DNA of 64,000 nucleotides from Escherichia coli. Lineage in GTDB: Bacteria; Pseudomonadota; Gammaproteobacteria; Enterobacterales; Enterobacteriaceae. The stretch's first letter is position 1. Each line of letters starts with the position of its first letter. The stretch lies in NCBI RefSeq assembly GCF_003334815.1, contig NZ_QOWO01000004.1; one strand, given 5' to 3'. Made by a program: the position numbers. Below are positions 47,101-50,100 of this stretch, piece after piece.

Positions 47101-50100
47101 GCGTACTGATCAACTACATCGCCATTTGTCTGGCTTCGGCACGTAAAAAACAGGGTAAAGATGCGCTGGTGGTTGGCTGGAATATTCAGGATACCACCCG
47201 TCTGTGGCTGGAGGGCTGGATTGCCAGTCAACAAGGATGGCGCATTGATGTCCTCGCCCACTCGCTCAATCAACTACGCCCTGAACTATTCGAAGGCCGT
47301 ACATTGCTGGTGTGGTGCGGTGAAAATCGAACCTCCGCCCAACAGCAGCAACTCACCAGTTGGCAAGAACAAGGCCATGATATTTTCCCACTCGGCATTT
47401 AATGATTCGTTAACAAATGCGCTTTACTGTACAATCCTTTCGTTAACATAAGGAGTGCATTATGCGCATAGCTAAAATTGGGGTCATCGCCCTGTTCCTG
47501 TTTATGGCGTTAGGCGGAATTGGTGGCGTCATGCTCGCAGGTTATACCTTTATTTTGCGTGCTGGCTAAGCGCCTGCACCAGCCTTTCAAACAGGCGGTC
47601 TGCGATGATCGCCGCCAGTGCCACCAGTAACGCCCCCTGGATCACATACGCGGTATTAAATCCGCTAAGCCCGATGATGATGGGCGTACCCAGCGTGCTG
47701 GCCCCTACCGTTGAGGCGATCGTCGCCGTACCAATGTTGATAATCACCGAAGTTCGCACGCCCGCCAGAATCACCGGAGCCGCCAGCGGTAGCTCGACCT
47801 TACGCAGTCGCTGACCACGACTCATTCCCATACCCTTCGCAACTTCTGTCACGCTGGCATCAATCGCTCCCAGCCCGGCAAGTGTCGCCTGCAGGACGGG
47901 CAGCACGCCGTATAGGATCAAGGCGATAATCGCTGGTTGCAGACCAAAGCCGATCACCGGAACAGCAATCGCCAGCACCGCAACGGGCGGAAAAGTCTGC
48001 CCAACGGCGGCAATAGTTTCCACCAGTGGGCGAAATTCCGCGCCCCACGGGCGAGTGACAGCAATTCCGGCACCAGTACCAATGATCACCGCAAACAAAC
48101 TCGAAATTCCCACCAGCCAGAAATGAGCCAGTGCCAGAGCTGCAAAACTTTCTTGCTGATAAACGGGTCGTGGCAGTTGTGGGAACAAGGCAGCAAACAG
48201 CGGCTGGCTGTAAGGCAGCCAGAAAATCAGTGCCACAAACAAAGCAATGAGCCAGAACAGCGGATCGCGCAACATCTTCATACGCTTACGCCTCCACCAG
48301 CAGATCCTGAAAATGCAGCGTGCCGCTAGGCTGGCCCTGCGTGTTCACCACCGGCAGCACCTCGCATCCCCGCGCGACAAACAGAGAGAGCGCATCGCGT
48401 AGCGTCATCTCTTCTGCCAGTGCCTCACCTTCTGCCCGTTCTTCGCGACGCACGTAATCCGCCACACTACGTAACGAAAGCAGGCGCACACCCAGTTCAC
48501 TACGTCCAAAAAACTGGCGGACAAAATCATTCGCCGGACGAGTCAGCATCGTCAGCGGATTGCCCTGCTGCACCACTTCACCGTGATCCATCAATACCAG
48601 ATGTTCTGCCAGCCGTAGCGCCTCATCAATATCATGAGTGACCAGCACAATAGTGCGCCCCAGCAAACGGTGAATGCGCGTCATCTCTTGTTGCAACGCG
48701 CCGCGCGTTACCGGGTCCAGTGCGCCAAAAGGTTCATCCATCAGTAAGACTTGCGGATCGGCAGCCAGTGCGCGCGCCACTCCCACACGTTGCTGCTGAC
48801 CACCGGAAAGCTGATGCGGATAACGCTCACGCAAATTTGACTCCAGCCCCAGTAGCGCCATTAATTCGTCGATACGATCGTCAATCCGTGCCCGCGACCA
48901 TTTTTGTAATTGCGGCACGGTAGCGATGTTTTGCGCCACGCTCCAGTGGGGGAACAGGCCAATAGATTGAATGGCATAGCCCATCCGGCGGCGCAACTCC
49001 AATACTGGCAGCGAGCGAATTTCTTCTCCGGCAAAGCGGATCTCTCCGCTGTCATGCTCCACCAGGCGGTTAATCATTTTCAGGGTGGTGGATTTGCCGG
49101 AGCCAGATGTGCCAATCAGCACCGAAAAACTCCCTTCCTGAAAATTGAGATTGAGATCGTTAACGGCTTTTTGTGCGCCGAACAGTTTGCTGACATGGCT
49201 AAATTCAATCATTACGTTTCACCTTCAGCAGTGCGATAAGCAAATCGAACAGCGCGTCGGTAAGCACCGCCAGAACAATTACCGGGATCACCCCCAGCAA
49301 CACTAAATCAATGGCGCTGCTTAGCAGCCCCTGGAAAACCAGCGCACCAAAACCGCCTGCGCCGATTAACGCCGCAATCACCGCCATACCTACAGTTTGC
49401 ACCATCACCACCCGCAGGCTGCGCAGAAATACCGGTAACGCCAGTGGTAACTGAACATGCAGGAATCGCCGCGCCCCGCTCATGCCCATCGCTCTGGCGC
49501 TCTCCAGCACATCGCGCGGGATCTGGTTCAAGCCGACTACCACGCCGCGCACCAGCGGCAGCAAGGCATAGAGCACCAGCGCAATCAGTGCGGGTGTCAT
49601 TCCGGTTCCTGCTATGCCGAGCTTCCCCAGCCACGGAAAGGCCGTCACCAGCGCGGCAAGCGGCGCAATCAACAGGCCAAAGAGCGCCACCGAAGGCACG
49701 GTCTGAATGACATTGAGCAGAGAAAAAATTGCCCCCTGCCGAGCAGTGGAAAAGTAGCACCAGATGCCCAACGGCACACCAATCACTAACGCAGGCAGCA
49801 CCGCACCAAACAGCAACGTCAGATGTTGTGCCAGCGCGTCGTCAAACACATCCTGACGGTTGGCGTATTCTTTCATTAGTGAGAGATCGTTAAGCGTGCC
49901 GGAGTACAGCAACCACAGCGGAATAATGGCAATCTGCATATGCAACAACCAGCGCCACAGCGGATGCGTGGAGATTCGGCGGATGGCATCGCTACAGGCC
50001 AGCAATGCCAGCGCCGCAGCCAGCCAGAAACCACTGCCGAGGCTGGTACGCGCCAGCGCACTGCCATTTTGCGCCAGTTGGGTCGCCGCCTTTCCAGCTC

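Follow-up and report, generated by a model that had tools for sequence, protein, structure and literature searches.

The stretch of Escherichia coli DNA analysed here, 64,000 nucleotides (nt) of contig NZ_QOWO01000004.1 (assembly GCF_003334815.1) and called the window below, contains two very short open reading frames (ORFs) that we identify as the known E. coli genes yohO and yohP, both encoding functional membrane proteins. We assign this reading a probability of about 0.93, and nothing that we found contradicts the identity of the two genes. The yohO coding sequence (47462..47569, plus strand) has 35 codons and a stop, and its product is a single-span small membrane protein of the UPF0387 family. 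The yohP coding sequence (60829..60912, plus strand) has 27 codons and a stop and encodes a single-span small inner-membrane protein, MKIILWAVLIIFLIGLLVVTGVFKMIF. Both frames are located exactly as the initial annotation, made from the sequence of the window, had placed them, and both are below the 60 amino acids (aa) that the ORF lister requires by default. They are independent, monocistronic-looking small genes, and both have a conserved ribosome-binding site and a putative conserved promoter of their own.

Identification of yohO and yohP

The names given in the initial annotation agree with those in the databases. RefSeq E. coli genomes have at these loci the features "protein YohO", flanked by mlrA and yehW, and "small membrane protein YohP", flanked by mdtQ and dusC. 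YohO matches the NCBIfam equivalog NF010225 with 80.1 bits (cut-off 57) over residues 1–35 of 35, and YohP matches NF011345 with 67.3 bits (cut-off 58) over residues 1–27 of 27. Identical sequences of both peptides are present under these names in public protein collections, that of YohO also as UPF0387. Precomputed Pfam matches on YohO homologues are to PF27791 (UPF0387_membrane); our Pfam-A scan of YohO itself produced no significant match, the library used evidently being older than PF27791. Sequence searches of the PDB with both peptides gave no match, and no Rfam family overlaps the yohO or yohP locus. When each locus was compared by megablast with 5,426 complete E. coli genomes, the yohO region was found in 5,424 of them and the yohP region in all.

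The gene of the window does not differ in any respect from the YohO family (NF010225 / PRK13681, UPF0387, PF27791): the sequence is identical, the profile match is full-length, and the position between mlrA and yehW is the same. Likewise, YohP is the type member of its own family (NF011345 / PRK14762, with the product of Salmonella STnc1330), being identical to the E. coli reference protein and sharing the mdtQ–dusC position (as in PMC12719787), Gly15 and a -10 box of the sigma-S type. Both genes are already catalogued (RefSeq, UniProt, NCBIfam), and YohP serves as a model substrate in work on post-translational targeting by SRP, the signal recognition particle.

The start codons and plausible ribosome-binding sites noticed earlier are indeed there. 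Both frames start with ATG, preceded with a 6-nt spacer by a Shine–Dalgarno (SD) sequence, AAGGAG at 47450..47455 for yohO and AAGGA at 60818..60822 for yohP (both on the plus strand). Each peptide has one uncharged span, in agreement with the single transmembrane segments proposed in the initial annotation. In YohO it comprises residues 6–32, that is, 27 residues, with basic flanks R2/K5 and R33, and in YohP residues 3–23, with basic flanks K2 and K24. The best 19-aa Kyte–Doolittle means are 2.41 for YohO and 2.96 for YohP, and the grand averages of hydropathy are 1.58 and 2.47, respectively.

As a chance screen, we considered 431 ATG ORFs of 25–50 aa on both strands of the window and required a 19-aa hydropathy of at least 2.4 and an SD core 5–13 nt upstream. 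Only four ORFs pass, namely yohO, yohP and the pair of type I toxins ZorO/ZorP. Hence the observation of yohO and yohP is more than chance.

Conservation of the reading frames

Homologous loci were gathered via dld, situated midway between yohO and yohP, with 10-kilobase flanks, which resulted in 80 species-representative loci from Escherichia through Vibrio. By tblastn, full-length stop-free yohO is present in 38 of the 80 loci, with one more, frameshifted copy, and full-length yohP is present in 31. The genera are Escherichia, Salmonella, Citrobacter, Enterobacter, Lelliottia, Leclercia, Huaxiibacter, Raoultella, Intestinirhabdus, Siccibacter, Mangrovibacter and Silvania. The ATG, the SD core and the stop codon are retained in every intact copy of yohO and yohP. 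The yohO core is AAGGA or AGGAG at a constant distance in all 40 orthologous loci, and a purine-rich GGA/GGAG core is found upstream of all yohP orthologues. Thus the check suggested earlier, conservation across the Enterobacteriaceae, yields intact and syntenic copies of both genes in multiple genera.

The substitutions follow the codon structure. Variable alignment columns are distributed over the three codon positions as 20/11/30 in yohO and 10/2/22 in yohP. The ratio of nonsynonymous to synonymous substitution rates (dN/dS), calculated by the Nei–Gojobori method for all pairs of distinct sequences, is 0.137 for yohO and 0.027 for yohP in the annotated frame, while in the two other sense frames it is 1.6–2.4 and 0.46–4.7, respectively. 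The codon-aligned antisense frame has intermediate values, as expected (0.33 for yohO, 0.19 for yohP), and the remaining two antisense frames have values of at least 0.8. Strong purifying selection acts on yohO and yohP in the annotated frame only.

The 3' end of yohO overlaps yehW (47550..48281, minus strand), a 243-aa ORF that encodes a permease of the YehZYXW ATP-binding cassette (ABC) transporter and is the constant convergent partner of yohO. In codons 1–29, outside the overlap, the dN/dS of yohO is 0.137, and in the core codons 15–28 it is 0.042. As the codons outside the overlap are still constrained, the selection signal in yohO is not a by-product of yehW.

Across 18 distinct YohO sequences, with identity down to 60%, residues M1, G19, I20, G22, V23, M24, L25, G27, Y28 and I31 are invariant, and K5, M15, A16, G21 and A26 are conserved in at least 90%. 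Together, these residues make up a block within the C-terminal half of the YohO helix. In YohP, K2, G15 and K24 are invariant in 32 sequences.

Translation, the other check suggested in the initial annotation, has been observed with tagged fusions, pulse-labelling, ribosome profiling and top-down mass spectrometry (PMC7549839, PMC12719787, PMC5437024, bioRxiv 10.1101/2020.05.05.079178, PMC12529367). For YohO, one of these sources reports ribosome profiling in the correct frame and describes the protein as membrane-bound, citing Hemm 2008 (bioRxiv 10.1101/2020.05.05.079178); YohO was also detected by top-down proteomics (PMC12529367). Hence both translation and conservation, whose absence the initial annotation had named as evidence against the genes, are found.

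These data bear on the alternative that one or both frames are chance hydrophobic ORFs in non-coding RNA, yohP being only the small RNA (sRNA) STnc1330, and yohO only the 3' untranslated region (UTR) of mlrA or antisense to the 3' end of yehW. In Salmonella, the yohP transcript was indeed first catalogued as an sRNA, and consensus scans detect neither a canonical sigma-70 promoter nor a terminator for yohO or yohP. However, a non-coding transcript is at variance with purifying selection specific to one frame, with the conservation of the ATG, the SD sequence and the stop across genera, and with the detection of the products as tagged proteins, by pulse-labelling, by ribosome profiling and by mass spectrometry; nor does Rfam have a family at either locus. 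The frame-specific selection and the direct protein detection exclude this alternative, to which we give practically no weight.

A phmmer search with YohO against 1.84 billion representative proteins yields only 17 sequences at E ≤ 1e-3, including many gene calls that are frameshifted or chimeric; hence YohO is a narrow family at the level of the Enterobacteriaceae. Most of the "distant" YohO representatives in the 50%-identity library (P0017, P0018, P0020, P0021, P0023, P0025–P0028, P0031 and P0032) are frameshifted, truncated or chimeric, the chimeric ones having the YohO N-terminus joined to out-of-frame yehW antisense or to adapter-like sequence. Because of these faulty gene calls, member counts of the YohO family taken from such libraries overstate its diversity. 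The frameshifted yohO mentioned above comes from Citrobacter amalonaticus AUH_CA_2023_1 (locus L081, about position 3530), where the gene goes out of frame near the start and only residues 12–35 align. It is either a pseudogene or an assembly homopolymer error.

Upstream and downstream regions

The yohP gene is preceded by a -10 box of the sigma-S type, C-TATACT, with the C at -13 (60792..60798, plus strand), delineated by conservation. The motif CTAnACT is found upstream of all 32 yohP copies (31 loci and the window), in the form CTATACT or CTACACT in 31 of them and CTAAACT in the remaining one, usually 36–39 nt before the ATG. The -35 region is not conserved. A C at -13 followed by TAYACT is reportedly the sigma-S-selective -10 signature, according to the work of Hengge and colleagues. 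The yohP box agrees with the observation that sigma-S-dependent genes show the canonical sigma-S -10 element without a -35 element (PMC5437024). The consensus scan gives no sense-strand promoter for yohP, and the few promoter and terminator matches at both genes are at the chance level.

The 3' region of yohP (60900..61053, plus strand) is predicted to fold into a stem-loop over the stop codon (60900–60929) and a 12-base-pair G+C-rich palindrome (61022–61053). Neither the terminator scan nor the fold reveals a U-tract terminator after the gene. Further downstream, G+C-rich palindromic sequence resembling repetitive extragenic palindromic elements extends over 60940..61280 (plus strand). A 401-nt query that includes the downstream part of the yohP region matches a median of three places per E. 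coli genome. At least 80% of the yohP region is kept in only 3,374 of the 5,426 genomes, and hence the intergenic stretch is variable.

The candidate -10 box of yohO is G-TACAAT (47429..47435, plus strand), again proposed from conservation: 39 of 40 loci have GTAYAMT at positions -32 to -34 relative to the ATG, and the motif is also kept in two further loci, L083 and L087, in which the upstream gene is different. The consensus scan finds no full sigma-70 promoter for yohO and no -35 element at the canonical spacing. The box is embedded in a conserved AT-rich module (47399..47448, plus strand), seen in the census of loci and in the alignment, which is a candidate regulator site. The module contains the inverted repeat TTAATGATTCGTTAA at 47399–47413 and copies of TTCGTTAACA at 47406–47415 and 47439–47448, the two copies bracketing the -10 box. 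The cross-genus form of the inverted repeat is TTAATG-N3-CRTTAA, and that of the -10 box is G-TAYAAT. In E. coli, the mlrA stop codon (47400–47402) falls inside the module. The latter is retained when mlrA is 200 nt away or absent, and also in L083 and L087. Judging by this arrangement, the yohO promoter module appears to be autonomous and to travel with yohO into other contexts, which is a mildly new point.

An MlrA box was considered at the yohO promoter and rejected. The csgD-type sequence, TTGTACA-N12-TGTACAA, fits positions 47409–47434 with three mismatches, and a number of matches at least as high as in the window is obtained in 68 of 100 shuffles. Moreover, the box is not conserved: in Enterobacter the half-sites are ATTAACA and CGTATAA, and in the C. 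freundii group the spacing is 8 nt shorter.

The overlap with yehW and a possible role of YohO

The convergent overlap of the 3' ends of yohO and yehW, given as about 20 nt in the initial annotation, is exactly 20 nt (47550..47569), with the yehW stop codon inside yohO codons 30–31. The window, one K-12 derivative and 37 of the fetched loci made up the 39 rows of the overlap census. The genes overlap tail-to-tail in all 39, most often by 20 nt (25 rows); the overlap is 26 nt long in 12 rows, and there is one row each with 17 nt and 23 nt. The rows with 26 nt form the Enterobacter/Raoultella clade, where YohO is 37 aa long. In two further contexts the overlap is 20 nt (L083) and 26 nt (L087). 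The gene upstream of yohO varies: it is mlrA in most loci, a TonB-dependent receptor, neither mlrA nor btsS, in L083, and btsS in L087, and mlrA is absent upstream of yohO in L023 and L043. The dld-region loci that have no true yehW orthologue have no yohO either. The retention of the overlap in every genome examined, whatever lies upstream, is a mildly new point. In the K-12 derivative ER1709 (context L010; L001 2487..3401), yehX is annotated as frameshifted.

Our literature search on yohO with yohP, mlrA or yehZYXW gave nothing functional. The mentions of the gene that it yielded are in screen lists only: a peak inside yehW in a SELEX (systematic evolution of ligands by exponential enrichment) experiment, the ASKA clone list, and anaerobic down-regulation in Shigella.

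Small residues spaced at i and i+3/i+4 form a classic helix-packing surface of the glycine-zipper type. In the C-terminal half of the YohO helix, such a surface could be formed by the small-residue face G19-I-G-G22-V-M-L-A26-G27-Y28, through which YohO would either oligomerise or bind to a larger membrane protein. The conserved glycine-rich face, as suggested by the alignment, is another mildly new point. The likeliest partner or regulatory target would be the YehZYXW ABC transporter, whose last gene is overlapped tail-to-tail in every genome examined. We thus suggest, with considerable reserve, that YohO may be a dedicated partner of YehZYXW (OsmF), either with its helix docking on the YehW/YehY permeases or as a regulator of the yehZYXW mRNA via convergent transcription across the 17–26-nt overlap.

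Small-protein partners of transporters, single helices of about 30–50 aa, are known in the pairs KdpF–KdpABC, AcrZ–AcrB, MgtS–MgtA and CydX–CydAB. YohO likewise is a single helix with a conserved small-residue face, genetically tied to a transporter locus. Unlike the genes of the KdpF/AcrZ type, however, yohO is not co-transcribed with the transporter: it is on the opposite strand, overlaps the transporter gene and has its own conserved promoter module. The searchable literature reports no physical interaction between YohO and the transporter, and the tie seen here is one of genetic linkage.

Several points speak against such a partnership. The co-occurrence of yohO and yehW carries no independent weight, since genes that physically overlap are automatically lost together. 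With each stop inside the other gene, the overlap is hard to undo once formed and may be a frozen accident. The convergent orientation of yohO and yehZYXW, which are not in an operon, differs from that of most transporter-associated small proteins. Finally, in Escherichia sp. MOD1-EC7003 (L004 7238..7500), a deletion equivalent to window positions ~47634–51496 has removed most of yehW together with yehX, yehY and yehZ, and spared intact yohO along with the last ~84 nt of yehW, although this deletion may be recent.

The same overlap could be explained differently, if the yohO locus acted mainly in cis, with convergent transcription across the overlap tuning 3'-end formation or stability of the yehZYXW mRNA, and the peptide were secondary. 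This would be consistent with the conservation of the overlap in all genomes examined and with the properties of the 3' regions. The consensus scan finds no terminator-like sites on the relevant strand between the yohO and yehW stops or just beyond either of them, and the folds of both 3' regions contain no hairpin with a U tract; hence the yohO and yehW transcripts probably overlap. However, the peptide is strongly constrained, and a pure cis transcript would not need a dN/dS of 0.042 in codons 15–28, which are outside the overlap. We regard a locus acting mainly in cis as improbable, although the peptide and cis roles of yohO are not mutually exclusive, and a dual role is possible.

Function and distribution of YohP

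The level of chromosomally encoded YohP-SPA of E. coli increases between early and late stationary phase, in minimal medium and when oxygen is limiting (PMC12719787). In Salmonella, yohP is on the transcript first called sRNA STnc1330, and the 3xFLAG protein, abundant in the wild type, can hardly be detected when rpoS is mutated (PMC5437024). YohP is found in inner-membrane vesicles, is carbonate-resistant and has mostly the C-in/N-out orientation; its dimers, resistant to sodium dodecyl sulphate, require Gly15. It is bound post-translationally by SRP and inserted via FtsY by SecYEG or YidC (PMC7549839), and the yohP mRNA is membrane-localised independently of translation (PMC7549839; review PMC12648545). 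Production of YohP decreases the membrane potential and fluidity, increases cardiolipin and induces the phage-shock (Psp) proteins and (p)ppGpp, a state termed "metabolic silencing", and the yohP deletion makes cells more sensitive to ciprofloxacin and oxidative stress (PMC12719787).

The mechanism put forward in these papers, which we adopt, is as follows. Sigma-S drives transcription of yohP in stationary phase and upon nutrient limitation, the U-rich mRNA goes to the membrane, and the finished 27-aa peptide is passed by SRP to FtsY and then to SecYEG or YidC. YohP dimerises through Gly15, mostly with the C-terminus in, and its accumulation damages the membrane without killing the cell: the proton motive force and the fluidity fall, and cardiolipin increases. 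The damage in turn elicits the phage-shock and stringent responses, leading to a protective low-metabolism state.

Some observations weaken the case for such a role. Premature expression from a plasmid is the source of most published YohP phenotypes, and the effects of the deletion are mild (PMC12719787). In the type strain of E. albertii (L003 16285..16432), the segment corresponding to window positions ~60771–61294, which contains the yohP promoter, the gene and the downstream repeats, is deleted. Furthermore, several Citrobacter species lack yohP at the mdtQ–dusC position (loci L009–L012, L018, L020, L021, L059, L081 and L082). Hence yohP is dispensable or relocated in some lineages, and its absence from these genomes agrees with the mildness of the deletion phenotype.

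YohP might also be a depolarising persistence or dormancy effector similar to type I toxins and checked by an unrecognised antisense RNA, rather than a protective silencing factor. ZorO/ZorP, TisB and HokB are likewise shorter than 50 aa and have one hydrophobic helix in the inner membrane, and overproduced YohP, which also depolarises, resembles the type I toxins in its effects: the proton motive force falls, growth becomes slower and the nucleoid is condensed. The window itself encodes genuine toxins of this type, ZorO/ZorP, which are comparable to YohP in size and hydropathy, and a minus-strand promoter-like site (60928→60901, 10 of 12 matches) points into the 3' end of yohP. However, such antisense matches are at the chance level (one found, 1.7 expected), and the -35 element of this one falls in downstream sequence that lacks conservation across genera. 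Rfam detects no antitoxin RNA at yohO or yohP, whereas in the same window it detects OrzO-P for ZorO/ZorP. Long structured 5' UTRs are typical of type I toxins, in contrast to the yohP leader, which is probably about 24 nt long; unlike these toxins, both yohO and yohP have short leaders, and no cognate antisense or overlapping sRNA is detected by Rfam. Finally, endogenous YohP is high in stationary phase without killing, and the deletion reduces stress survival. Hence a toxin-like YohP seems rather unlikely, and we retain the protective silencing factor.

Other elements of the window

The two OrzO-P antitoxin RNAs are at 35608..35681 and 36216..36291 (plus strand), with Rfam scores of 99.9 and 88.8 bits. 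Each of them is paired with a 29-aa hydrophobic ORF on the minus strand, ZorO at 35273..35362 and putative ZorP at 35881..35970. The first ORF is identical letter for letter to the published ZorO (MDTLTQKLTVLIAVLELLVALLRLIDLLK), and the second one (MDSLTQ...) is presumably ZorP. At these loci, the best-matching RefSeq genomes have no annotated feature, and NCBIfam has no model for the peptides. The occurrence of these toxin genes implies that the window does not come from K-12.

The mdtQ gene (yohG; 59169..60605, minus strand) has an intact frame in the window. It differs in this from K-12 MG1655, where the T-run near window position 60433 has one T fewer, and mdtQ is annotated as a frameshifted pseudogene. 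A Peptidase-S11 RNA motif (56721..56801, minus strand; Rfam, 72.8 bits) adjoins the 5' end of a 313-aa ORF (55784..56725, minus strand), which is at the place where pbpG would be expected from the E. coli gene order. A thiamine pyrophosphate (TPP) riboswitch is found at 16210..16306 (minus strand; Rfam RF00059, 71.2 bits).

Significance

Genes encoding fewer than 60 aa are recoverable by a reader from raw sequence, and for two very short genes, yohO and yohP, the comparative evidence of coding selection is clean. As for the relationship between YohO and YehZYXW, the overlap, the glycine-rich face and the promoter module together make it cheaply testable.

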